64,000 bases of DNA from Paraspadella gotoi (GCA_051294375.1 CM119269.1:6309919-6373918); one strand, 5' to 3'; shown: positions 18,907 to 36,166, numbered from the stretch's first letter. Notes: generated by a model from the letters alone, not told the origin. Made by a program: numbers and translations.

Positions 18907-19248
18907 TTACTTATCTTCACCGTACACTACAGTGTACACAGTCAAGTCTAACCGGATCTAAAGAGATTGATTAATTTAATGATATTTTTCAAGAGGGATA
19001 TTTCTTGTAAAGAAATTTATGATTTTTATCTCATAGGTTATGGTATTTTAAAAAAGAAACATAATTTATATGATCCTTAGACGTACGTACGTATGTATTT
19101 CTCATTGTCCAGCTCGTTTATTCATTGAATATAAGTTTCCATTTTTAGAAATCGTTTTATTCGTTTTTAAAAAAATATCGTTTTATTCTGATATCACTTA
19201 TGTTTTGTATAAATTACAGATTTTACATATTCGTTAATTAAAAAAAAA

Positions 19249-19717
19249 ATGGCGCCGAAATACGCGATGGCCATTGGGCGCGTCCGAGACAAGGGATTCC
19301 GCACGACGAAACACAAGGCTCCGGTCAAACCCTCCCGTAGAAAGGGAGTTCAGCACAAAGTAAGATTAAATTTTAAAATCCGTGACGTTATGTAAAAAAT
19401 ATTTGACTAAAAATCTAATTTTCGCAGCGCGTAAAATTCGTGAGGGAGCTCGTGCGCGAGTTGGCGGGATTCGCTCCTTACGAAAAGCGGTGCTTGGAGT
19501 TGTTGAAGGTGAGATTCGTTGATATCTGACGATCGACGGCTTCGATCTTCTGTTTTACTCCTTTTTTTTTTTTTTTTTTTTGCAGGTCTCCAAAGATAAA
19601 CGCTGCTTGAAGTTCGCCAAGAAGAGGCTCGGTGCCCACGTCAGAGGAAAGCGAAAGCGAGAGGAAATGCAATCGGTCTTGCAAGCGCAACGCAAAGCCG
19701 CAAGCGCCAAACAATAA
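19249..19717 (+). CDS. RPL36: 60S ribosomal protein L36, 3 exons
   Basis: KPSRRKG…[54 protein letters not shown]. Confidence 0.97.
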
Positions 19718-19936
19718 AGACAAACTCCATCGCATGTTTTTTCTTTTTCTTCCTCGATCATAATGCGCCAATTTTGGTTCTAGTTAACGAACGTTTCGTG
19801 AGAATTTTTATCTAAAAGTTGATTTGTAATTTCATTTTGTTTTTTCAGCCCAGAGTTAAAATTTAACGATACTTTGTGATAAGTGGAATGTGTTTACGCT
19901 AAGAATACACTCTCCCAAATTAATTATATAGAGACC

Positions 19937-21252
19937 ATGGCTCTTTCTAACGACGTCAGGTCCGACCCTTTCCACACTGGCGTGACAAAGATTTTATTGG
20001 AAGCCGTAATGAAACTGGCGGCTCTTACCGGTACTTCGGGTTTTTCTTGATTTATTTAAATCAATGAATTTTTTCTCTATGTATCTAATAGTAATATAAA
20101 TACAAAACGCATATGATATTTCAGACTCGCGCCTCTTCGTTCTGGTGGAGAATTTCGAAGGTGGGCGTCAGTTCGCAGGATCGCGGCACCTGACGCAGGC
20201 TTTCCGCGCTGGCGGCATCGGCCCACTGCCCACCGACGTGGAAGTGCAGATGCCGGTCGACGTGGCGCCCGTCAAACACTCCTCCATCGGCGCCCCCAAC
20301 GCCCACCATCACCACCACCACAGCAGCGGCGTCCGTCGCCCGGCGCCCTCGCGCGATCACCACCACTCCTCCGGCGTGAAGAGGCTCAAGATGAGCGACG
20401 GCTCGGAACACGTCCTTGAACAACAGGTGCCGCCGCCCGTCTCCGGATCTTTGCCCCTCGATACGCGGTATTCGACCGGCGCTCCTGCCGTTGTGACCTC
20501 GCCCTATGGCCAGTCTTACGTGAACAACAAGTCCGGAAGGTGAGTCTCTGCGATTTGATGAATACGATTCCATCTTTTAACTTCCTTCCTTCCCTCAAGC
20601 GATTGGAGTTCGGGAAACCTTCAAACTGTCCAGTTCGACGCCGTCGACGGATTCCACTCTCCCCATCATCCCCAACACCATCACCCCGATCACCATCGCG
20701 ACCACCATGGCCTCGTCGACGAAGGCAGCGACTCTTGCATCCCCGAGGAGCTGAAGAAACAGTGGCAGGAACACCGGGCGCTCAAGGAAAGGTCGCCGAA
20801 ACAGTTGGCCAGATTAGAGAGGGAAAGAAGGTGGGGGCAGCCTCGTTTTTTTTCCAAGTCCCACCGGCGCCGCTTTAACGCCGATCGTATGAAAGAATTT
20901 TTTTCCTTGTTTAAAGTTTTCAATTCTTTCCAGGAAGCGCGAGAACATGTCCGAGGCGGAGCGCGAGATGTTGCGCCGCAAACAGGCGATGCAGGCGCGA
21001 GAGCGGCGCCGAAACCAGTCGCGGGCTCTGGGCGAGGCGCGCCGCAACCAAGACGTTGAGTTCGAAATCGAGGAGCGGGCGCGCCTCGTCGGCGCTCGCT
21101 ACGACCCGCCGCTCGAGGGAGAGACTCTGCAGGAGCAGCGGAACCGCCGGGCCAACAACCGGCGCCGCGTCAAGTTCGCCGAGAACAAACTCGACGCAGT
21201 CGGACTCGGGAATTTCGAAGTCAAGCCCATCGACGTGCACGAATCCTTGTGA
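19937..21252 (+). CDS. Novel protein A: MADS-like N-terminal module, His/Pro-rich linker, basic RYDPP repeat; exons 19937-20030, 20125-20539, 20600-20830, 20934-21252
   Basis: Four phase-consistent GT-AG exons. N-terminus is homologous to the gene at 30185; C-terminus is homologous to the modules at 22800-25839. Confidence 0.85.
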
Positions 21253-22116
21253 TCGATTTTTTCCAAATCATTTGGCGCCAAAAAATAAAAATAATACAGT
21301 TGATTCGTACCGACATATTTTCGACAAAGAAGAATTGTTCCCATGACAACATAGCCGATGTCTTGGAGGGGAAAGCCCTGAGGATGAACTCGTTAACGGC
21401 GCCACTTCAAACATTATGTTGTTATTATTTGGGAAAGAAAAACATATATTATAAGTCGACAATAGGCGCGTGCTACATTATCGTATATGCTATGTTTTGA
21501 AAACTCTTTAAGACATTGTACGGTCGCGTATATTCTTTGGATTTTTTTTCTCGAAGATTTACATTTCATCAAGTATTAGTTTTACTTAGTCGGGCTGCAG
21601 AGTGTTTTACCTAGTCTATTTGTTTTAAAATAGACGAGTAAATCAAATCTGATTTTTATATTTACATCGTTGAAATTCTCAGAAGTTATTAGTTTTTTAG
21701 TTTGAAGCCAAGCAAAGGTAAACAGAATCATTCATACGGTTGTCAATTCAGACGACTTATCATTCGACGACATATTACCGATTGTGTTATTTTTGGTTAT
21801 TAAAACTTCCTTCACGCAATTCTTAGACAACAAAATTTACTTAATTCACGATTTTGTATTGTAAAGTACGTGTGCATGTTTACTTTGTAAATACCCCGAT
21901 CCTTCATCTGTAAATTAATTGCCATACTTTTTTTTGTCTCTCTTTTAACGACTTTAAAATTTGAGAATCGAAAAAAAGACTGTAGGCTATGAACAACAAT
22001 GTCGCTTTCTCCTCAACCCTTTTCACGTCCCATTTTCGATCCTGCCCTTCCCTCGTTTCGATCTCTCTCAATCTCTTTATCTCTTTTACTTGCAGCGATT
22101 TTAGTTCGCCGCCAAA

Positions 22117-24950
22117 ATGAGCGTCGGGAACATGAACGTCGCTTACCCGACGATCTGGACGAAGGTAAACACCAACTGGTCAGCGGTTAATCTGCAAACC
22201 GTACACTTTGAACCGGTTACCATGGAAGCGTACCAACAGGCGCAGCAGAGCACCCCGGGTGAGGCGAAAGGTGAAGATCTTCCAACATCTTTTCTTTTCT
22301 TCAATCGTTGAAATTTCGTTTTAAAACCAAAGGAAGGGTATCAATTTTTTTTTTCCCGTTTTCCCTTGTCGTCAAGGCAATGCCATTATCGCCAACGCTG
22401 CCGCCCTCTCGGGCGTTCAGGTCAACGGCCTTCCCATCAAGAAAGAATGGCCCCCTCAGCAAGTTTCCCAAGGCCAGCTGCCCCAGACTCACATCACCCC
22501 CATTCAAGTGACCGCTGGGCCGGGACAACAGTTACCCGGCCAGCCCCAGGTCATCCAACTCCAACCGCAACACCTGCAGCAGCTGCAGCACCAGCAGCAA
22601 CATCAGTCGCAGCAACAGCCTCAGCTCCTCCAACCCATCCAGCTCTCAGGCGAAGCTTCCAAGGGTCTCTCCATAGTGACGGCCGTGACGCCCGTGACGG
22701 CCGTGACCCCGGGACCCAATCATCCGCAACCCTCCCAAACGCCCACCAGCCACCACCAGTCCCACCCGACGCCCAGCACCACGCCCGCCATGTCCGCCGC
22801 CGATCGTTCTCCGAAATATCTCGCGCGTCTCGAACGCGAGCGGAAAAAGCGCGAGAACATGACGGAGGAAGAAAGGCTCCTTTTGCGACAGAGGCAGGCG
22901 CAGCAGGCGCGCGATCGCCGCCGCAACCAGGCCCACGCTCTCACCGAGGCGCGCCGGAGCCACGGGGGCGACATCGAGAACGAGGTCGAGAGGCGCGCGC
23001 GGCTCATCGGCGCCAGATACGACCCTCCAGTCGATGGGGAGTCAATTCACGAGCAGAGAAACCGGAGGAACAACAACAGGTTCTATAGAAATAGAGAGAC
23101 GAGAGATTGCGTCGTCACCTCTTTATTTGTACATACAAATAAGTATTTTGAGATATTGTTAATTTAGATACGTAAATAAATTTAAAACAGAGATTAAGAG
23201 TAAGAGAGAGTAAGAGAGTTATTAAATTGGTACAACAAATATAAGAATTATCCATTCATAAAATAAATACTATCAAGGAAAAAAGTATATCACATTTTTA
23301 ATAAAGGATATCTAATCGAAAACTTATTTGATTTAAAAAAAATTTGAATGTTTTCGAATTTAAATTAAATTTATTTTCAGTAGCTTCCTTCTTTTTTTTG
23401 TAGGTCAAATCGTTTAGAAGTTACAGGCAAAAAAATATTGTTACTTCAAATGAAAAATGGCGAAAAAAGTTTTTTATTATTTTTGATATTTAATTATTTG
23501 TTTTTATTTTGAATAAAGTAATTTTTTTTCAATTTGGCAATGCTAAAGGCCTTATATCTCATTTTGGTTCAAAAAAATGCTTTTATAGCTTTCAGAAAAG
23601 AGAGAAAAACGCGTAATATCATCGAGTCTTAAAAGAATTTCATTAAAGATGTGGAAAAACATTTCACTGTCAAACCTCAATTTACTGTATGAGAGCATAC
23701 CCAGATAAATGCAGGCTGTAATCAATACCGAAGAAGGGTATACCAAATATTAAGAATGTTTTACTCATGTTTTGTATATTTTTTATTAAATAAATGAATT
23801 ATGTGATATACTGTTTTCCTAGATAGTAAGCTATCTTGCCCCTGACAATGGAGTGGCTATGGTGGGCTAAGGCCTACATCTCTCCTACGAAATAGTATCT
23901 TAGCATAGTTAGCATAGTACCTGACTTCTCCATCAATGAAGTTATATAATGTTTCAATTGTGAGTCCCTAAAATTAAATGTAAAAAATAAAAAAGGTTTA
24001 GTCGATCCCTTACCTCGTGACGACGCAATCTCTCGTCCGCGTCAGGCGACGAGTCAAGTTCGCGGAAACCCGCGGTATGGACATGGAGTTCGAGATAGAG
24101 AAGCGATGCCGCTCTGTCGGCTCGCGATACGACCCTCCCGTCCCCAACGAAACCATACAGGAGAAGAAAAACAGGCGTCAGAACAACAGGAGACGCCTGA
24201 AATTCGCTGAAAAAAAATTGAGTCAAAATGGGGTTGGTATATTGAATTTAAATTTGTTATTCGGAAATTAAAAAAAAATAAATCAAAGGCTGGGTTTCGC
24301 GGCAGGGTAAACGAATGAATTTTTTTCTTAAAGATTGCTGACTTTTTCCAACGTATACTAGTAGAAAAAAATAATGTAGTCGATTAATTAGGAACTGGCT
24401 TCTGTGTGTTGAAAACAAAAAACACTAAATACATATGGAAATGGAATAATTTTATTTTTAACATAACGTGCCTTGAAAAAAAATATTTTTTTGGACTTCG
24501 AAGATGTGCAGCAATTTTTAATTTTCTGATTCATTGTCTATTTTGCCGTAAAATCAAAGAATGAGTCATAAATGTCTTTAAATACTTATGCCAATATTTT
24601 GTAACCCACGGTTTAAATTTTTTTTAGTTTTTAATTTTATTTTTGCATGAGAGTGATATTCCCTGCTCATGTTAACACCTTAAACCTATTATTATTTTAA
24701 ACATTTCTTTTTATAAAGTGATACTATATCAGCGTAATTGTGCCTTCTTTTTACAGCGAAAATCTTTGATGGTTAATGGTTATTGATTAACTTAAATCAA
24801 ACCCGATGTTAAAAGTTTGAAAGTATAAGTAATAATGCGATATCTTTTAAAATCCCGATTTTAATTTATTTTAAACTTGACCTTTAGATCTTGTTCCAAT
24901 TTCAGTTTTTGGAAGGCCCTTTGACGCTCGATGCGGAGAAAACAGACTGA
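22117..24950 (+). CDS. Novel protein B: Gln-rich region plus two RYDPP repeats; exons 22117-22270, 22377-23080, 24045-24232, then last exon 24906-24950 or 25441-25839
   Basis: Phase-consistent splice sites. Shares the WS.xNLQTV.F..V motif and the RYDPP domain with gene A. The final exon is ambiguous. Confidence 0.75.
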
Positions 24951-25398
24951 CTTTGCACATCTTAAATATTTTATTTTATTTTAAATAATTTTAAAAATAA
25001 AAAATATTAGCAATTTTTTTTTTTAATTTACGAGGGGCCAGCGATGAATTTTTAGACTGAAGTACTAACTACTACATAGTAAATAATTTAAATTTTAGAT
25101 TCTTTTTAATATGAATTTAAAAATTAAAGAATAATGCGTAGTTTCTTATTTCTCTCGAAGACAAAGTTTTATTTAATAAGTTACATAACGTTACATACGT
25201 GACATTTTAATGGTTTTTGTCGCGGGTCCTTCGTAATATTAAACCTTTCCCTTTCTCATTTCAAATTTCCGACCAAATTATATTCCAAAACAAATTTGAA
25301 TCTGATATACCGTCCTAAAACTCCCTCTCCCCCTCCTTTCGACTCTTCTCTGCATTTCACCGCCGCCGCAACCACCGCAACCCGTGCTCGACCGCGAC

Positions 25399-25839
25399 AT
25401 GCACCACCACTCTCACCAAACGCCGCCGCCGCTTCCTCAGAATTGGTGCAACCGTCAGAATCAGCCCGCGAAAGACGCCTCCTCCAAGTACATGGCGCGT
25501 ATGGAGCGCGAGAGGAAGAAGCGCGAGAACATGACGGAGGAGGAGCGGGAGTCGTTGCGTCTCAGACAGGCGCAGCAGGCGCGCGACAGGCGCCGCGCGG
25601 CCTCCCGCGCCCTCAGTGATGCGCGCAAGAACCAAGATATCGAGCTGGAGATCGAGGCGCGCGCGAGGATCGTGGGAGCGCGTTACGATCCGCCCAACGA
25701 GGGCGAAACCCTGCTCGAGCAGAGGAACCGACGCAACAACAATAGGCGACGCGTAAAGTTCGCCGAAAACAAACTGGGATCCTCGGGACTGGCAGACTTC
25801 GAGATCAAGTCCGTCAGCGTCAGCGACGCCGTGGCGTAA
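25399..25839 (+). CDS. RYDPP-repeat module C: either a single-exon gene from ATG 25399 or an alternative last exon (25441-25839) of gene B
   Basis: KYMARMERERKKRENMTEEER…GARYDPPNEGETLLEQRNRRNNNRRRVKFAENKL is a close paralog of the gene A and B C-termini; phase-0 acceptor at 25440. Confidence 0.75.
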   Translation: MHHHSHQTPPPLPQNWCNRQNQPAKDASSKYMARMERERKKRENMTEEERESLRLRQAQQARDRRRAASRALSDARKNQDIELEIEARARIVGARYDPPNEGETLLEQRNRRNNNRRRVKFAENKLGSSGLADFEIKSVSVSDAVA

Positions 25840-25869
25840 AAAATAAAATTACTTCTTTTTTTTCGTTTG

Positions 25870-25874
<5 letters not shown>

Positions 25875-25937
<63 letters not shown>

Positions 25938-25955
25938 CTCTCTCTCTCTCTCCTC
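25875..25955. repeat. (CT)n microsatellite
   Basis: About 80 bp of CT dinucleotide repeat with minor interruptions. Confidence 0.95.
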
Positions 25956-27485
25956 ATTCGCGAAGTATAAGCATATGTAACGCGCGAGAGTGATTTACTT
26001 TATATACGTTGGATCGAAGCGGCGTCGATTATTTTATCTCTTTCGCTCGGAGAAACGTCGAAGTGGCTGATGCCGACGCGTTTGCGCTCGACCTTTTCGC
26101 TTCCCAGATTGAAACCAGTTTTAATGATAAAAAATAATCGAAATACAAAACTAAAGACATTTCCCTTCGCCCCCCATTTTCATCTTTGGAGAGAGAGAGG
26201 CATATATCGAGGAAGAAGCACGAAAATGCCGATTTTTTTTCCCCTTTTTTTAGATTTTTCTAAAAAAATTGTTCATAAATGGATTTGACGATTTTCATTG
26301 CATGCATTGATTTCTGCTCGCAGGATTGATGTTATTTTCGACATGTACCGTTTCCCTTTCCCTCCAAGCCCCTTATTTTTATTTCGGTGCGCGGATATTT
26401 CACCCTCTCCCCTCCTCGCCCCCGTTTCCAAACGAATCTCCGGCGTGTATTTTCTGCTGCATATTTTATTTTCACTTGGGTCTTTTCGAGTTCCAGTCCG
26501 AATCGGGAGTGAAAGATCTCGTGATTTAAACAAACTTATCAGTAATCACGACTCTTTTTCTCCCGCTCTTTACCCCTCGAGGCCATTCGCTCCCTCCCAG
26601 TTTTCGCCCCCAATCTCATTCCAATCCTACCTCCAGTTTAAGCGTTGGCTTCCCAACTCCCCCGTCCCCTTCCCCTACCCCGGCGATGACGGACGATGGA
26701 CTCGAAATGGTTTGTTTTCTACTTTGATGAAAGGATTTCAAAATGTTACAAGTCTGGAGATACATTGCGACTTGATTGTCTATTAATCGCGGAATTAGGC
26801 TCCGTTTAGTTACGCCGATCCACCGGCTCGTTGGATTTTTTTTTATATTGCGGAGATTCCCCAATTTTGCGAGATATGATTTCAACTCGCGAATTTTTAT
26901 TGTATAATACAAAGTTCAAAATTTCGTGCTTTGTTTACACTATCATGGCCACTTGATTTTTTTTTTTTAGTTCTTATTAAGGATTTCAAAAATGAATTTT
27001 ATGAGGTTTGTACAAAGTACATCGAGTTTTGTACGTCAAGAGGCTCTTTATTTATAGTTTTTACTTTGCTATAGATTTCATAGATAAATTACCAGTTTGA
27101 TTTTTTTTTTGTATGTCGGTAATGAAGACTTTTTGCATAATAGGCACCTCCTGCAATAAGAGATTTTTTTTCTTTCTCAGCATAATTTTCTTTCTCATTG
27201 GTTTTCACGTCTTCATTACTTTCGAGTTAATTTTACTTATGGAGTGGCATTGCATTTAAAAAAAAAATCGTTAAAACACTTTCTTCAAACGTATATATTT
27301 TGTTTAAACGTCAGAAAAGATATGATGGATCACAACACGAAAAAAAATAACAGTAATTTAAAAAAAAAACGAAAACACCCACACGTTGTACATATTTTAT
27401 GTACTTATCACCCTCTCTCTCTCATACTATTTGATTAGAAAGTCTCGTCCTCCATAATGATACAATTACTTCTTTCAATATAGAG

Positions 27486-29510
27486 ATGTCAGTGAAGTCC
27501 TTGACGTGCCTCGTTCGAGGCGGAAAGCGGTTCTATCGATCTTCGGCCGGAAAAACTTTTGTCTCGAACGCTCGTTGTTTCGGCCTCCCCTCGCGTTTAC
27601 CGGACTCGGCCACGCCCACCGCTCGAGGCTTCTCCACATCCTCCCGCCTCGAGGCGCAGTTTTATGATTCGGCGGCCGAAGCCGTCGCCGACATTTCCGA
27701 CGACTCCAGGCTTCTCGTCGGCGGTTTCGGACTCTGCGGAATTCCCGAGAACCTCATCGACGGCCTCTTGAAAAATGGCGTCAAGAATTTGACAGGTGAG
27801 ATGAACAAATTTGTGGAAACGACCGATGAAAAGCGATTCGTCTAAATCCCTCGACTCGACTCGACTCAGCGGTGAGCAACAACGCGGGCGTCGACGACTT
27901 TGGCCTCGGCCTTCTTCTCAAAACGCGGCAGGTGAAAAGAATGATCTCTTCATACGTGGGCGAGAATCGTGAGTTCGAGCGCCAATACCTCAGCGGCGAA
28001 CTCGAGGTCGAACTTACCCCGCAAGGCACGCTCGCAGAGAGGATACGCGCCGGCGGCGCCGGAATTCCAGCTTTCTTCACGCCGACCGGTGAGAGACCGG
28101 ATTTTGATTTTTGATTTAATTTCTAAATGTGTGCAAATTTTGCTATCTCTAATTTTGTTTGGTTATCTTAGGGGAAGTTTAGAATATTAAAAAATAATCA
28201 CTATACTAATAATTAAATAAATATAAATAAATAGATTGGTTTAAACCAATACAATAAAAATTCGCCCATTCAATAAATAAGCAACCTAGCTTATCGAACT
28301 TTACTTATATTTTGAATTTGTATTTAACAAGATATAACTAAGAACTGACTATCATCTCTGCTAGCTTACGGAACGCTCGTCCACGAGGGTGGAGCTCCAA
28401 TCAAATACTCTCCCGAGGGTTCTGTTCTCATTCCATCCACCCCGCGCGAAAGTCGCCAGTTCGCTGGGCGACATTACATCATGGAAGAAGCGATCACGGG
28501 CGACTTCGCCCTCGTCAAGGCCTGGAAGGCGGACAAAATGGGAAACCTCGTCTTTCGCAAGACGGCGAGAAACTTCAATGAGCCCATGTGCAAGGCGGGT
28601 CGGGTCACCATCGCCGAGGTCGAGGAAATCGTCGAGACTGGCGAACTAGACCCTGAGTCCATTCACGTCCCATCCGTCTACGTCCAGCGGGTGGTACATT
28701 CGCACCAGCTGCAGAAGCGGGTCGAGCGCCTGACTCTGAGTCAGGAATCAAACACTAACGCCTCGAACAACGCAGTTTCGCCGGCTGAGGCCATGCGGGA
28801 AAAAATCGTACGCCGGGCCGCGCGAGAGTTCCGCGACGGCATGTACGTCAACCTGGGCATTGGTATGCCAATGCTCGCGTCGAACTTTCTTGAGGACGGG
28901 ATCACTGTGCACTTGCAGAGCGAGAACGGAGTACTGGGTCTTGGACCTTATCCCGCAGAGGCTGAGGTTGACCCCGATCTGATCAACGCTGGGAAGCAGA
29001 CTGTCACCGTCGTCCCCGGCGCTTCTTATTTTGGAAGCGACGAGTCCTTCGCCATGATCCGTGGCGGCCACATCGACATCACCATCCTCGGCGCCATGCA
29101 GGTCTCGCAAAGCGGAGACCTTGCCAACTGGATGATCCCCGGCAAGATGGTCAAGGGCATGGGCGGCGCCATGGACCTTGTCGGCAGTGGGGGGAGCAAA
29201 GGTTAGAGGATTTTGTTTTTTTAAACTTAGTTATCACAATAATTTAATGTTATTGTTTTTACTTGTTCCAGTTATCGTGACGATGGAGCACACCGCCAAG
29301 GGAAAGCCTAAGATCTTGCCGGAATGCACGCTCCCCCTGACGGGCAAAAACTGCGTCGACATGATCATCACGGAGTTAGGAGTTTTCGAGTTCGCGGACG
29401 GAAAAATAATGTTAACGGAGATTGCGGATGGCGTCACCGTTGACGAGGTCGTCAAAGCCACCGCGTGTTCCTTCAAAGTTGCCGACGAACTGCGACCCAT
29501 GCTTCAATGA
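27486..29510 (+). CDS. OXCT1: Succinyl-CoA:3-ketoacid CoA transferase, mitochondrial
   Basis: Mitochondrial presequence, [37 protein letters not shown], catalytic SENG and [11 protein letters not shown]. Confidence 0.97.
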
Positions 29511-30184
29511 CCCCTTATTTAAACTAAATTGTCCCCTTTTTTCGTTCTCAAGCGCTTCGACGGGTTACATTATCTTGTCAAATTATACATCTCGTCTTTT
29601 GTGATACTATCAAATTTTTTTATCACCACGCTGAAAAATTACTTAAAGAGTTTGTGAGCAAAGCCGGAACTTCTCACAGGTTTTTAATAATGTGAAGTTT
29701 TTTATTTTAATTTTGGATCTTTTGAGTTTACTTAGCTACCGAGATTCCCTCACAAATTAGCATGGAAAATAAAAATCGTATGACAGACAAAATAAACTTA
29801 CACGACTCAGTCGAAACTAAAGTGATTTCAAGCTCAAACATCTACTTTCCTACCGACACAAAAGTTTACTCAATCCATCCATCCGATCACGAGTAATTGG
29901 AGTTCAATGCTTAAGGTGGATGGACGGATATCATTTTTTTGCATATTTTTTTGCCCCCTAACAATTCGACGTTCTGAAATGATTTAGGTGACTGACCGAC
30001 ATAACTATAAGAGGTAACCGACACTGACAAAGTGACTTAAGATCCAGAATTCGCAACAAGAAGATTCGATTAAAAATGTTAAAAAACAGAATAAATAAAT
30101 GGAAACTTCATTCCAGTCTGAAAGTCATTTTTTTATTAATTCGTTTGTTTTTCAGTCTGTAAAAAATATAAACCTCAAAAGGCA

Positions 30185-33100
30185 ATGTCGTCTTCACAGA
30201 GCCTTTTGGGTCTCGTGACTCAGTTACAGTCCATGGAAATGAATTTGACGTCGGTGCTCATGGAAGCCGCGCTTAAACTTGCCTCGTTAACAGGTGCGTT
30301 TACGTACATTTTAGTTTGATTTTTTGAGAAAATTGCAAATTTCGAAAATCCATCTTCATTTTCCAGACGCGAGCGTCTTTTTTCTCATCGAAACGCCAGA
30401 AGGTCGACGGTTTGCCGGAAGGCATCATCTCTGCGACGCGTATCTGCGTGGATGTCTCTGTCCTCTTCCCGATGACAAGGAACTTGAGGTCGACATTAAC
30501 GTGTCGTCGCTGAGGGAGAAGTCGCGGCCACCGATGCCAGATCCTGGTGAATGATCGATGATTTACGAATTTAAGTCATTACTGATAACAGGGTCTTATG
30601 TTTCATCATACTATGGCAACGGGGAGACATGTGTGATGCCCGGGGTGTGAGGCAACTCCCGACAGCTGGTTGTCCAGCTTTTCTCTATCTTTTTTTCTCT
30701 TTCTCTCTCCCATACACGCAGTTTGTTTGTTTTTATTAACAATGAATGACCAATGACCATCGCGTCAATGAATGACGATCATCGCATCAATGAATGACTA
30801 TCATCGCGTCAATGAATGATTATCATCGCATCAATGAATGATTATCATCGCATCAATGAATGATTATCATCGCATCAATGAATGATTATCATCGCATCAA
30901 TGAATGATTATCATCGCATCAATGAATGATTATCATCGCATCAATGAATGACTATCATCACATCCATCATTTGGTTATCATCGCATCAATATTTGGTTAT
31001 CATCGCATCAATAATCAATTAATATTACATCAATCAATCAATTACTATTACATCAATCATTCGTTATCGCAACAATCATTCGTTTTTTTTTTCTGGAATT
31101 TTTCATTAATTTTCTTTGATAGTCTGCCGAGATCACTATACTTTCAAGATTTTTTTTCAATGTATGCAATACTTCATTCAGCGAACGATCGCGCCCTCGC
31201 TTCCTTGCCCAACGTGTCTTCCCTTCCTCCGTCTATCCGCCAGTCGCCCTCCGGCCGGAAACGTCCCTCCCCTTCGGCCGCCTCTTCCTCCTCGCCTATC
31301 AAACAGTTAAAGACGAACTCTTCCCGCGCCGGAAGCGTCGCCTGCAGCTTCTTCAACGCCGCCTCTCCCGTCCTAAAACGAGAGGCGGTGGACGTCAAGT
31401 CGGAGGCTTACGAGATTGACGACGAGGACAGCGACATCGAAGAGATTTTTGCAGTGGAGAGCGAAGAGGCGGTCGGCGGCGTCGGTGCCTTCGATTTTGA
31501 AGGAGCAGGCAGAGGCGCCATTGCTCCCAACGGCCTGGCGGTGGAATTAGCCGGCGCTTCCGGGATGGAAAGCGTTCTCAACCAATCGGAACTCGAATCG
31601 GTGGGTATCAAAACGGGCAGGTCGGGTTATGGGTGGGGCGGAAGAGGAGGCTTGCGATGGTTGGACCGATGATTTTTTTTCCATGGTTTCTTTTTCTTCG
31701 TACTGGCGGCGGTCATTCAAAGCAAGTTTGCCCAGTCTCGACCCCCGATCGGTGCGATGAGGCTTTTTTTGGTGGCTGACAAGATCCTTTCCTCCTTTCT
31801 CGCTCTTTTTCTTTTGTTATGTGTCTTCTCTATCTTACTCTTAACTGGCTCAACTTATTCGTCCTTTTCTTTCTTCTGCTCTCCCCTCCCCTTTCAAACC
31901 ACAGGAAATAATGTCTTGGGTCGAGACTTGGGTCCAGAGCAACGTGAAAGCGGTAGCGGTTCGGTCCATTGCCGACCCAGCCGCGCTGAGCGGTGAGAGA
32001 GGCGGCGAGCGCCGCCTCCTCAGTTCCCTCTGCTACGACTTTGGCAAAGATTTCGCCGTCAAGTTTCGCGGCGGAGGCAACCGCCGCTTCGCCTTTCGCC
32101 TTTTCTGGGCACAATTTCCTAACTTGCACGTCCACCTGGGAAAAGATTTCGACTACGGCGGCCGACCGAGGACGTTGATGGTCTGGTGCTCCGCCATGGT
32201 GTCCACGGCTGTGTCGAGGACGAACCATCGGGCGGCCGTTTTGAGCCGTGATCGCGTTCGTTTAGAAATCGGTTGAGAGAGGAGCGAGCGAAAGAGAGAG
32301 GGAGTTTGGAATACTTGATGAATGGAGTGTTGCTTTCTTCACCAGGTTTAGATTGATTTTTAAAAAGCAGAAAAAACCCTTCGTTAGCGGGAAAAAAAAG
32401 TGTATTCCTCTCCGTTTTTTCCAGGCGATGGTTAAATGGGTCCGGGAGGACTTTGTCAAGAGCAACCGAAAGTTCTCCCCTCTTTCTCAGATCAGTGACC
32501 CCGCTTGTCTGTACGATAAGAACACGATCGAGCGGAAGTTGATGAGCTCCCTGTGTTACGAGTTCGGGAAGGAGTTTGTCGCGCGCTTCTCCGCGCTTCA
32601 ACTCTCCCGCCGGACGGCTTTCGAAACGTTCTGGGCTTGTTTCGAAAACCTTCATCCCTACGACGACTTCATCTGCGAATTTAAGGAGGGTCAGAGAAAC
32701 TTGAAGAGCATGTGCAACGCCGTCTTTTCCACGGCCGTCTCGTACACCAAAAGAAAAGTGGTCGCGTCTTGAATCTCTTTCAGTTCGCGCCCCTGCCGCT
32801 CCCCACGTTGACTGCAGTTCGGTGTATTTTATTTGGGAATCAGCATTAATTATCTGTACTTGATCTTTCATTGAATTTTTCTTAAATTTTAAACGTTTTA
32901 CTAGATGAAAATCCAATTTAAATTTTTTTTTTCTCCGTTTCTATTTGCAGGCCATGGAATCATGGTTTTGGAATGTCTTCTTACAAAATAATCTAAAGAT
33001 CGAAGCGGTTAAATCTATTCAAGACGCGAATTGTCTGACGGAAAAAAGTACTAATGAAAGGAAACTCTTGAGCTCGCTCTGTTACGATTTGGGAAAAGAA

Positions 33101-34247
33101 TACGTAGAAAAATTCATGCATCCGGCCGTTTCTCATAAAATATTGTTCGATCTTATGTGGGGTTATCTCAGCAACTTGCACCAATTTCAACTTCACATCG
33201 TAGCTCATAAAAGTAGAAGAGTCAAATTGAAAACTCTGTGTTTAGATTTGTTTTCCTCGTCGATTTCTTACCGACGAAGCGTTTCAGTCGGAAAAAACCA
33301 TTAAAAATAGCAAGATGCTAAATTGAATTTCCATTATTTGGAATGTGTCATAATTTTTTCTCTCGAATAAAAATTTACTATAGAAACTTTAGAGGAATCT
33401 TCTTTTCCTTTGCTTTTCAGAACTTGTGGAAATTTGACGACTTTGTCCGTAACAACATAAAGTATGAGGCTTTAAAACAAATTCGAGATGAATCGATCGT
33501 TAATAAGGACTCTGCCTCCTGGAAAATATTCAATAGCGTGCTGTACGATTTCGCCAAGTCCGTTTCTGTTCATTGTAGAGACATGGAAAAGCGCCAAGTC
33601 GGCGCTTTTTTGAACATCTGTTTCCGCCAGTTTTGGGAAAATACACCCAACTTAAAGGACTTGCACGACGCTGGACTGGGGGCTAATTTAGGAAACGCTT
33701 ATCTCAAATTAAAAGCTTTTGCTCGTAATCGCGCTCGCAGCCTTTTGAGTAGTATGTTGAAAAAGTTTACGCAGCCTTAAGCTGAATATTGTTTTTTTAC
33801 GAAGTTTGTTTATTATTAAAAAAAATGTTTCATCGATTTTTAAAATGAAGTACTATTTAGCCTAAGTTAAGATTCAACCTCGTTTTCTAGGTGGCTTGGA
33901 TACATACGGAGTTTATCACTCAAAGCCCCAAAGTCCAATCCATTTTACAAATAAGCGACACGAGTGATTTAAAGTTCCGCGGAACAGTTACGAGAAAAGT
34001 ATTGGATTCATCTCTGTACGATCTGGGAAGATTAGTAGCGCTCAAATGTCCTTTCGATGACCCTAAGGGGGCGGCGGCGAAATCTTACCTGAATTTAGTC
34101 TACAATCGATGGTTCAATTCCTTTCCTAATTTCGATCTATTCAAAAATGACATGATTAATTATTCCGACGCTCGTCAACTTTCGGTGACGGCCTACATGA
34201 AGCAATACATTTACAAAGTATTGCTGTCTGTCAAAAAGCGTCAATAA
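30185..34247 (+). CDS. Novel gene with constant exons 30185-30293, 30367-30546, 31182-31600 and five alternative paralogous terminal exons (31905-32276, 32425-32772, 32951-33304, 33421-33780, 33891-34247)
   Basis: One phase-0 donor at 31600/31601. Each terminal exon has a pyrimidine tract plus AG, is phase 0, ends in its own stop and encodes a homologous domain of about 115-120 aa (I.D…RKL.SS..YD.GK…FW..F.NL). Confidence 0.85.
30680..31157. mobile_element. Dispersed minisatellite-bearing element, copy 1, with tandem 22-bp AATGAATGATTATCATCGCATC units at about 30741-30966
   Basis: Both ends (CT-rich…CATACACGCA and TCGTTATCGCA…GAGATCACTA.ACTTT.AAGATTTT) are shared with the copy at 40860-41512. 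Confidence 0.7.
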
Positions 34248-34606
34248 AAGTTTTCGAGATTTTTTTTCGTTTGTCCTGTCGCATATCTACTATATTTTTA
34301 TGTACTTTTGTTGAAAATTTAATCGTCAATAAACGAATAAATTATTGAATCCATCCCAGTTTTGTTTTCAAATATTCATCGCCTCGTTGATTTTGATCGA
34401 ATGGCTCCTGTTTTTACATTCTTCGTCTAGTTCTTAAGTTTTCTTTTCCCTGAAACGGAATCGACGAATAGAATCGACTCGGGCGAGTAACTACTTACGA
34501 GGGACTCCATTGTTTTTCTCACACGAACGGGTCCCGCGGCGTCGCCTCCTAGACTCGTTCTCTCTCATCCACGATTGCCGGCACCTCGTTCCGCCCTCTG
34601 GTGACG

Positions 34607-35265
34607 ATGTCCGTGGCGACGGCCCGCGTGCCTTCCAAGAAGCAGACGCTGGACGAGGCTTATTCACCGCCCGCCAACTTTCTGGAGATCGACGTGGCTG
34701 ACCCGGCGACTCACGGCTTCGCCAAGACCCGTTACACGGACTACGAGATCCGGATGAAAACGAATCTGCCCGTGTTCAAGATGAAGGTGAGACCGTATTC
34801 TTCAGTTTTAGCTACTTTCTTTTGTTTAATGTCAGCTGACCAAAGGTTGATCATGTTAAAATAGTGTAATCTTTCAATTTTCAGGAATCTTCGGTCAGAC
34901 GCCGCTACTCCGACTTCGAATGGCTCCGAGAAGAGTTGGAGCGAAATTCCAAGATCGTCGTTCCCCCTTTGCCTGGAAAGGCGCTCAAGAGACAACTCCC
35001 CTTCCGCCAGGTGGACGTCGTTGAATTGACAGTAAATTTAGATTAACATTGAGATCGAGCTTTTCTAATGGAATCCTAATTCTTCCTCAAGGACGACGGA
35101 ATCTTCGAGGACGAGTTCATCGAGGAGCGTCGCAAGGGCCTAGAGTCCTTTATCAACAAAGTCGCCGGTCATCCTTTGGCACAAAACGAGAGGTGCCTCC
35201 ACATGTTCCTTCAGGAGCCCACCATCGACAAGAACTACGTTCCCGGAAAAATCAGGAACACCTGA
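34607..35265 (+). CDS. SNX3: Sorting nexin 3/12 (PX-only)
   Basis: AYSPPANFLEIDV, RYTDYEIRMKTNLPVF, VRRRYSDFEWLR, PPLPGKA, FIEERRKGLESFINKVAGHPLAQNERCLHMFLQ. Confidence 0.96.
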
Positions 35266-36166
35266 TCGTCCGGATTCGTGGACGGAGATGCAAGAACTGT
35301 CGCGCACGATGCGACGAAAAAAAAAGGGGGGGGCTGAACAGTTTATTTAGTTTATTCGTAGTCGCGATAGACATGGGACAGAGTCTTTGAATGTGTTTTG
35401 GTATGAGAAAAAAAAATTGCTACCGGTGATTTGTCAGTATTTCCCGATCGGATAATATTTAACGGTTTGAACAAAATAAATCTTATCTCAACAACTAGTC
35501 TTACAAAGTTGCCTCAACGTAGCTAACGCAACTCCAAACCCCTAATGCATAATTTTCGGGCCACATCTCGAAGGTCGACACATTCTTTGCTTCTTTTTTT
35601 CTTTTTTTTGTCGTATTCTCTTCCCACCTTCGTTATTAACTTGAAGAAGCAATCAGCATATATACAACTGTCCGAGCCGCCTTCTTTGCTCTTTGTTTCT
35701 GGTTTTATTGTAAGGAAAGAGGTTCTTATTTATTTTTTAGAGTTTAATCAAGATTAGATTATTTTTGTGCAGTAAAAAAATGCTTGAATTTATGAAAAAT
35801 TAAAATTTTAAAAACTTGTCACTCTAATAAATAAAAAATCTTATGAACAATCTGTGATCAAAATTTCCTCCCCGGGGTACCTCTTCCCTTAAGCACTTTT
35901 GTTTTTACAATTTGACTCGCAAAATCTCAAATTTCTACTCCCTTCCCTCTAACGCCCAAACAAAGTCGTTAATTACATTCTATCATGTACTGTAAACTGT
36001 ATGGAATAATGATCTGTATGCTATAATTATCACTTAGAATTTTACCGTACATTTTCTTTATGCCTAGGTTTTATACACTTAACTCGATCCGTGCCTTGTG
36101 TAGTAAAGATTAAACGAAAAATGAGATTTCGTTGACCCTTCTTTGGTTTTAACGTCAAAAAAAAAG

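Follow-up and report, generated by a model that had tools for sequence, protein, structure and literature searches.

We analyzed a 64,000-nucleotide window of the Paraspadella gotoi genome (GCA_051294375.1, CM119269.1:6309919-6373918; positions are counted from the window's first letter). At 30185..34247, we found a gene whose constant exons are spliced to at least two alternative 3' coding exons, which we will call cassettes 1 and 2; three more paralogous cassettes follow. The five-cassette feature is real, and the core idea of the original prediction for this DNA, which was that one gene joins constant exons to alternative ends as insect lola and mod(mdg4) do, holds for at least two products. 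We infer that the N-terminal domain, or head, probably comes from the MADS box, and we infer the roles of the family of C-terminal domains, or tails. Our best reading is a lola-like gene within an unnamed family of nuclear regulators. Features beyond the original prediction are the weak resemblance of the head to the MADS box, at least 45 head-plus-tail proteins, a second head gene at 19937, and a one-strand gene cluster.

One donor joined to two acceptors

Transcript evidence came from run X1 (0.75 of sampled words), a single run from one study that we take to be RNA from its spliced behavior. (Runs X2 and X3 are from other organisms and gave scattered matches only.) The parts of the gene are as follows, with lengths in amino acids (aa). 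Acceptor ranks and model confidence (pLDDT, the predicted local distance difference test) are explained below.

30185..30293, + strand: constant exon 1, coding part, with the ATG at 30185; encodes the long amphipathic helix of the head; phase-1 donor; join 30293>30367 in X1 and from the sequence
30367..30546, + strand: constant exon 2; the predicted strand-strand-helix half of the head (head modelled from the orthologue P0001); joins seen on both sides
31182..31600, + strand: constant exon 3; join 30546>31182; ends at the shared phase-0 donor, which is in two joins
31905..32276, + strand: cassette 1; 123 aa; Met at codon 3; join 31600>31905 seen
32277..32345, + strand: non-coding stretch after the stop of cassette 1; the donor at its end is spliced to the cassette 2 acceptor
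32425..32772, + strand: cassette 2; 115 aa; Met at codon 2; join 31600>32425 seen; model pLDDT 97.4
32951..33304, + strand: cassette 3; 117 aa; Met at codon 2; stop overlaps ATTAAA; acceptor rank 2 of 149; counterpart P0009 (50% identity); join unseen
33421..33780, + strand: cassette 4; 119 aa; first Met at codon 55; acceptor rank 4 of 149; counterpart P0017 (51% identity, same acceptor-type position); join unseen
33891..34247, + strand: cassette 5; 118 aa; first Met at codon 88; in-frame stop directly before; stop overlaps AATAAA; acceptor rank 7 of 149; counterparts P0035, P0052, P0094, and P0108; join unseen

The coding exons 30185-30293, 30367-30546, and 31182-31600 form an open constant part of 236 aa that ends in phase 0. 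With cassettes 1 to 5 attached, the predicted products have 359, 351, 353, 355, and 354 aa, with a single stop each. The whole locus spans 4 kilobases (kb), and the five cassettes lie inside 2.4 kb.

Both constant introns are removed in X1, and the donor at 31600 is joined to two acceptors, 31905 and 32425. (The flat contig depths of these joins are 85 and 54, which are not measures of expression.) These two joins exclude the case in which only a single acceptor is ever joined to 31600. Together with the sequence, the X1 joins confirm the three predicted constant exons and their phase-0 donor; and of the predicted five proteins from one gene, the joins to cassettes 1 and 2 stand; those to cassettes 3–5 were not seen in X1.

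Strictly speaking, cassette 1 is not a terminal exon, since the 3' untranslated region (UTR) that follows it splices onward into cassette 2. This join, 32345>32425, uses a donor 69 nucleotides past the cassette 1 stop, removes a 79-nucleotide intron, and reuses the cassette 2 acceptor. An unspliced X1 contig also spans the gap 32345-32425. Given both the join and this contig, cassette 1 messages continue into cassette 2, which fits the absence of AATAAA or ATTAAA between 31600 and 33300. Thus the idea of five terminal exons is right in that each frame has its own stop, but not for cassette 1, which is spliced onward after it. Rather than a choice among five cleanly separate last exons, this looks like the use of alternative 3' splice sites that share a downstream region. 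(The 79-nucleotide intron could be a decay signal or a means of exposing the ATG of cassette 2.)

Five constrained, in-phase frames

As originally predicted, paralogous frames begin at 31905, 32425, 32951, 33421, and 33891; their lengths are 115–123 aa. Each lies directly after a pyrimidine tract plus AG and is in phase with the 31600 donor. The stops of cassettes 3 and 5 do overlap poly(A) signals (ATTAAA at 33300 and AATAAA at 34243), and no canonical signal comes before cassette 3 in the array. To score the acceptors, we used a splice-site matrix trained on 15 neighboring introns that were seen spliced, with no cassette acceptor among them. (These 15 introns of the window are 60–635 nucleotides long and all GT-AG; the DNA of the window is compact and animal-like.) Among the 149 AG sites in 31601-34560, the acceptors of cassettes 1–5 rank 1, 3, 2, 4, and 7. 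By a rough estimate, the probability that five in-frame sites of this kind fall at homologous positions by chance is 4e-10.

Pairwise identity among the paralogous cassettes is 17–41%. In all ten cassette pairs, similarity is lower at third codon positions than at the first two, which is a pattern of protein-level constraint. A profile search of the window found exactly these five copies and no sixth.

Relatives in other organisms and the case for cassettes 3 to 5

Searching 1.84 billion protein representatives with a five-cassette profile (E ≤ 0.001) gave 136 proteins with the tail domain. Of the full-length relatives, P0013 and P0011 are the closest: both align with the entire constant part (42% and 40%) and have the same tail entry point; in P0011, P0013, and P0023, a similar front part is joined to the tail domain at the same point. 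Among 16 clusters of relatives that we looked up, one was named, by an automatic Tma20 label on P0023. (P0064 and P0088 are single chains with one head and then two tail domains.)

The closest counterparts of cassettes 3, 4, and 5 have 50%, 51%, and 42% identity, which is above the identity to the neighboring cassettes. A quick tree of 126 rows (without the repeat protein P0034 and another 14 matches that were short) grouped cassette 4 with P0017 (support 98), placed cassette 5 in a five-row clade (97), and grouped cassette 3 with P0009 and P0022 (92). From these conserved counterparts, and from conserved acceptor positions in other organisms, it is likely that 31600 is joined to cassettes 3–5 as well. 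Also, cassettes 4 and 5 need an upstream exon because they lack an early Met. The conserved frame of cassette 5, whose first Met is at codon 88, is also directly preceded by an in-frame stop and so requires such an exon. Finally, an X1 contig starts at 32950, one base 5' of the cassette 3 acceptor, just as contigs start at 31904 and 32424, where joins were seen. This is a weak hint that the cassette 3 acceptor is used, as contigs cannot show starts. (The stretch 32818-32949 is without X1 cover in depth bins, which proves nothing.)

Many tail relatives are headless and resemble frames that run on through an intron. Among these, 19 have the conserved Trp and six or more upstream residues; in 14 of the 19, there is a Gln at -3 or -5. 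The background frequency of Gln is 0.038, and F, L, S, and P make up 0.51 of the upstream residues versus 0.30. Gln at these positions after an F/L/S/P-rich stretch fits what a read-through phase-0 CAG acceptor would give, and -3 and -5 are also the offsets of the window's own cassette acceptors. The safer count is 13 of 18, because P0031 carries an upstream fragment of a 5MP1/2 HEAT protein. In P0031, the tail domain stands behind this 5MP1/2 (BZW) HEAT fragment (E = 3e-13) instead of the head; this would be either an assembly chimera or a cassette to which an exon of another gene has been joined.

The head weakly resembles the MADS box but lacks its basic stretch

The head is present in 45 of the 136 tail relatives, and in 43 of the 53 that have at least 280 aa. 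It has about 80 aa and is predicted (in the model of P0001) to fold as helix-strand-strand-helix. An excerpt of PMC13281830 describes the MADS dimer unit as two helices joined by two antiparallel strands. When we searched with the head model using Foldseek, the best MADS-box match was weak (E = 0.056). MEF2, SRF, MCM1, and SEP3 filled the first 20 rows shown and 25 of 33 overall. Comparing 22 heads to Pfam, the most frequent family was SRF-TF (4 of 22, best E = 0.088, below the family cut-off).

MADS proteins contact DNA with an N-terminal basic stretch. This is missing from the head: the first 32 alignment columns of the 22 heads have a mean of 0.6 Lys plus Arg and 2.7 Asp plus Glu. Based on the models and these comparisons, the head is probably a MADS-derived dimerization module.

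SRF-TF was not listed by Pfam for the 45 full-length relatives (E ≤ 0.5), head profiles run against solved sequences (E ≤ 10) picked up no chain of a MADS protein, and the top 50 rows of a wide VIA structure search with the monomer head model included no MADS protein. Exon 2 alone as a query had no matches, and residues 1-83 of P0001 had no usable match in the Atlas. A predicted homodimer of the head scored 0.26, against a mark of 0.32, and we counted this neither for nor against a dimer. A metagenome scan gave 3 loci from 597 pattern matches; by eye, one of them (L001) looked like unrelated coding DNA with high G+C content. No BTB family was matched by Pfam in the constant exons (E ≤ 1) or in the 45 full-length relatives (E ≤ 0.5), so the N-terminal module does differ from BTB, as had been proposed.

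The tail domain and the linker

The tail is an unnamed domain, helical in its model, for which the Pfam scans gave no known protein family. Its model is confident (pLDDT 97). A conserved basic helix closes the domain: the end of the hairpin plus the last helix have a net positive charge in all 68 rows (mean +6.1), versus 0.0 for the rest of the domain. Pfam gave no C2H2 or FLYWCH match in 73 tail sequences, and there was no Cys or His among the columns conserved at 50% or more.

Between head and tail, constant exon 3 encodes a linker that is rich in Ser and Pro and has a basic cluster resembling a bipartite nuclear localization signal (NLS). The VKSE SUMO-type motif and the acidic stretch of the original prediction are both there; the latter resembles a SUMO-interacting motif (SIM). 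Among the 45 headed proteins, 26 have NLS-like motifs, 37 have psiKxE motifs, and 16 have SIM-like motifs, compared to means of 1.3, 12.6, and 3.3 after shuffling (the patterns were picked after the sequences had been seen). From the basic last helix and the nuclear motifs, the tail is predicted to bind DNA.

Proposed mechanism and alternatives

We propose that the 31600 donor selects one of the five acceptors in the tandem array. Translation would end at the stop of whichever cassette is joined first, and later cassettes would form part of the 3' UTR, up to the poly(A) signal in use. The head would keep the helix-strand-strand-helix pairing core of MADS, with a hydrophobic helix replacing the basic stretch that contacts DNA, and so it would serve as a module for homo- or heterodimerization. 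It would play for the cassettes the role that BTB plays for lola, pairing isoforms and paralogues. The linker would supply the nuclear-import, SUMO, and SIM-like motifs. The basic hairpin and last helix of each tail would contact DNA with a preference of its own, so that the tails select targets; dimers among isoforms and family members would then give a combinatorial choice of targets. Overall, we lean towards one gene that yields cassette 1 or 2, and likely 3–5, to give up to five predicted nuclear proteins with a probably MADS-derived dimerizing head and predicted DNA-binding tails.

As to how an acceptor might be chosen, Dscam-type pairing of docking and selector sequences, between the donor-side intron and the acceptors, was unsupported: 25.6% of 500 random picks did equally well. 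There were no Rfam families in 19000-35500 and no telling repeats among the cassette spacers.

We considered that the splicing design might be right and the biochemistry wrong: the head might merely converge on a MADS-like shape, or the tails might bind proteins or RNA, or both. This seems unlikely. Two different methods (Foldseek and Pfam) pointed to the same family for the head, the motifs for nuclear import, SUMO, and SIM-like binding together with a confined basic helix suit a chromatin factor, and a neighboring gene has the same head on another basic helical tail. We also considered that there are two or three isoforms only, with cassettes 4 and 5 (and perhaps 3) being silent 3' UTR passengers or decaying duplicates that are not joined to 31600. 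Several observations weigh against our proposal here. Joins from 31600 to cassettes 3, 4, and 5 were not seen in X1, and one unbroken contig runs from 32950 across all three into the next gene. Third-position G+C content is lower in cassettes 3–5 (0.41–0.50) than in cassettes 1–2 (0.70–0.73). The cassette 4 clade and the small cassette 5 clade contain no headed proteins, and the spacer before cassette 4 has an in-frame upstream ATG at 33343. However, X1 contigs drop rare variants, so the joins to cassettes 3–5 are "not seen" rather than "absent". These cassettes have intact frames, strong in-phase acceptors, the constraint pattern, and counterparts at 42–51% identity in other organisms, and unused duplicates that are so diverged would be expected to have decayed. 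We therefore think that such passengers are distinctly improbable.

Another explanation is that the cassettes serve, additionally or for the most part, as separate headless genes of a polycistronic cluster, with trans-splicing of a spliced leader at the same acceptors; joining to 31600 would then be just one of two uses. All 21 of the Pfam-matching frames in the window are on the + strand, and X1 contigs cross intergenic DNA. Cassettes 1–3 have a Met at codons 3, 2, and 2; the 32345>32425 join places the ATG of cassette 2 behind a second use of its acceptor; and in the upstream paralogous locus, a tail copy has its own ATG, at 22118. On the other hand, two cassettes were directly seen joined to the constant exon, cassettes 4 and 5 have no early Met, a stop lies in frame directly before cassette 5, and a contig over two genes does not show a single transcript. 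X1 contigs, which drop short dead ends, have no leader-like loose ends at the cassette acceptors. We consider separate headless genes very unlikely as the explanation of the locus. Still, the one-strand cluster, the intergenic contigs, and the early Met in cassettes 1–3 keep alive a second use of the acceptors, in trans-splicing of headless tails.

Comparison with known systems

An excerpt of PMC11426971 describes Drosophila lola as having a TTK-type BTB domain and 20 isoforms, of which 17 differ in their C-terminal C2H2 fingers. As in lola, the locus joins a constant N-terminal module, here a predicted interaction module, and a linker to alternative 3' exons with different end domains. Unlike lola, it has no BTB and no zinc finger, its five cassettes are packed into 2.4 kb, and cassette 1 is spliced onward after its stop. 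Drosophila mod(mdg4), according to an excerpt of PMC4667647, has at least 31 isoforms with common BTB exons and mostly FLYWCH ends, some of them from the opposite strand. The locus shares with it the common 5' exons and the duplicated acceptor exons with paralogous end domains. It differs in having no BTB or FLYWCH match and in that all cassettes follow the donor on a single strand, for which ordinary cis-splicing is enough. Membership in the lola/mod(mdg4) gene family is ruled out, as there is no BTB head and there are no C2H2 or FLYWCH ends. The locus does have the lola-like design, with one constant donor and more than one alternative 3' coding exon.

The head is like that of SRF, MEF2, and MCM1 (PF00319) in the predicted order of its elements, the top Foldseek rows, the weak Pfam family, and its N-terminal position. 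Unlike MADS-box factors, its matches are below threshold, it is missing the basic DNA-contact stretch, and a separate C-terminal domain is predicted to bind DNA.

BTB, ZAD, SCAN, and KRAB are the heads of lineage-expanded families of transcription factors. Like them, this head is small and is reused on many genes with more than one kind of tail. It differs in that its sequence is unrelated and the tails are not C2H2 arrays.

A second head gene and a one-strand cluster

The other features that we identified in the window are:

19937-20030 and 20125-20539, + strand: paralogous head exons of a second gene; 39% identity over 74 aa; same intron place and phase
30758..31059, no strand: minisatellite of 22/23 base pairs; within intron 2 of the five-cassette gene; multi-copy; outside the coding logic

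The second head gene sits 10 kb upstream, and its tail is unrelated, basic, and helical. Its full-length orthologues are P0001-P0003, which match the head plus unit 1. After the head exons, the stretch 19937-25840 contains three tandem paralogous basic helical repeat units, at about 20600-21252, 22118-24270, and 25306-25840, and none has a Pfam match near the cut-off. As unit 2 carries an ATG of its own (22118) and its acceptor (22097) does not match the frame of the 20539 donor, units 2 and 3 seem to be duplicates without a head. The minisatellite has very high contig depth and so is a multi-copy repeat in the genome.

We scanned 82 hand-picked frames from the whole window with Pfam. Matches were found for 21 of 45 frames on the + strand, versus 0 of 37 on the - strand, and represent 13 families, mostly housekeeping. 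RNA-like X1 contigs cross intergenic DNA at 26000-27792, 29270-30290, and 32950-34784. This suggests that the window (1-64000) is an operon-like or strongly co-oriented gene cluster. The neighbors of the five-cassette locus are a CoA-transferase gene on one side and a PX-domain (sorting-nexin-like) gene on the other. The gene content of the window, which includes the animal families LRRFIP, FAM174-like, and DUF4708, and the sizes of its introns suggest an invertebrate animal. A three-exon gene at 19250-19718, which by eye we take to be ribosomal protein L36, has a stop that overlaps AATAAA, as in cassette 5.

Significance

A constant head with variable tails is a design that is already known from insect BTB genes; the parts here, two unnamed domains, are new. 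At this locus, a lola-like design combines these two domains, and spliced transcripts point to at least two products. By title or abstract, we found nothing on the head/tail family in the literature, although supplementary orthogroup tables could list it unnamed; nor did the literature searched describe a MADS box redeployed as a DNA-blind pairing module. Since the whole locus is only 4 kb, its splice choice is open to minigene study. The tail is small and confidently modelled, with more than 130 natural variants and five paralogues side by side, and would offer a test of how specificity diversifies by alternative ends.

More tentatively, we can imagine, while thinking it rather unlikely, that in an invertebrate lineage a MADS dimer core became a DNA-blind pairing module on dozens of genes, employed much as BTB or ZAD are, and combined with a DNA-binding tail of an undescribed fold; that one head is spliced to five such tails at this locus; and that, within an operon-like cluster on one strand, headless tails competing with the full-length factors may be released from the same acceptors. 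If the head is indeed derived from MADS, then one of the oldest eukaryotic DNA-binding domains has lost the stretch with which it contacts DNA and has been redeployed as a family-wide pairing module.
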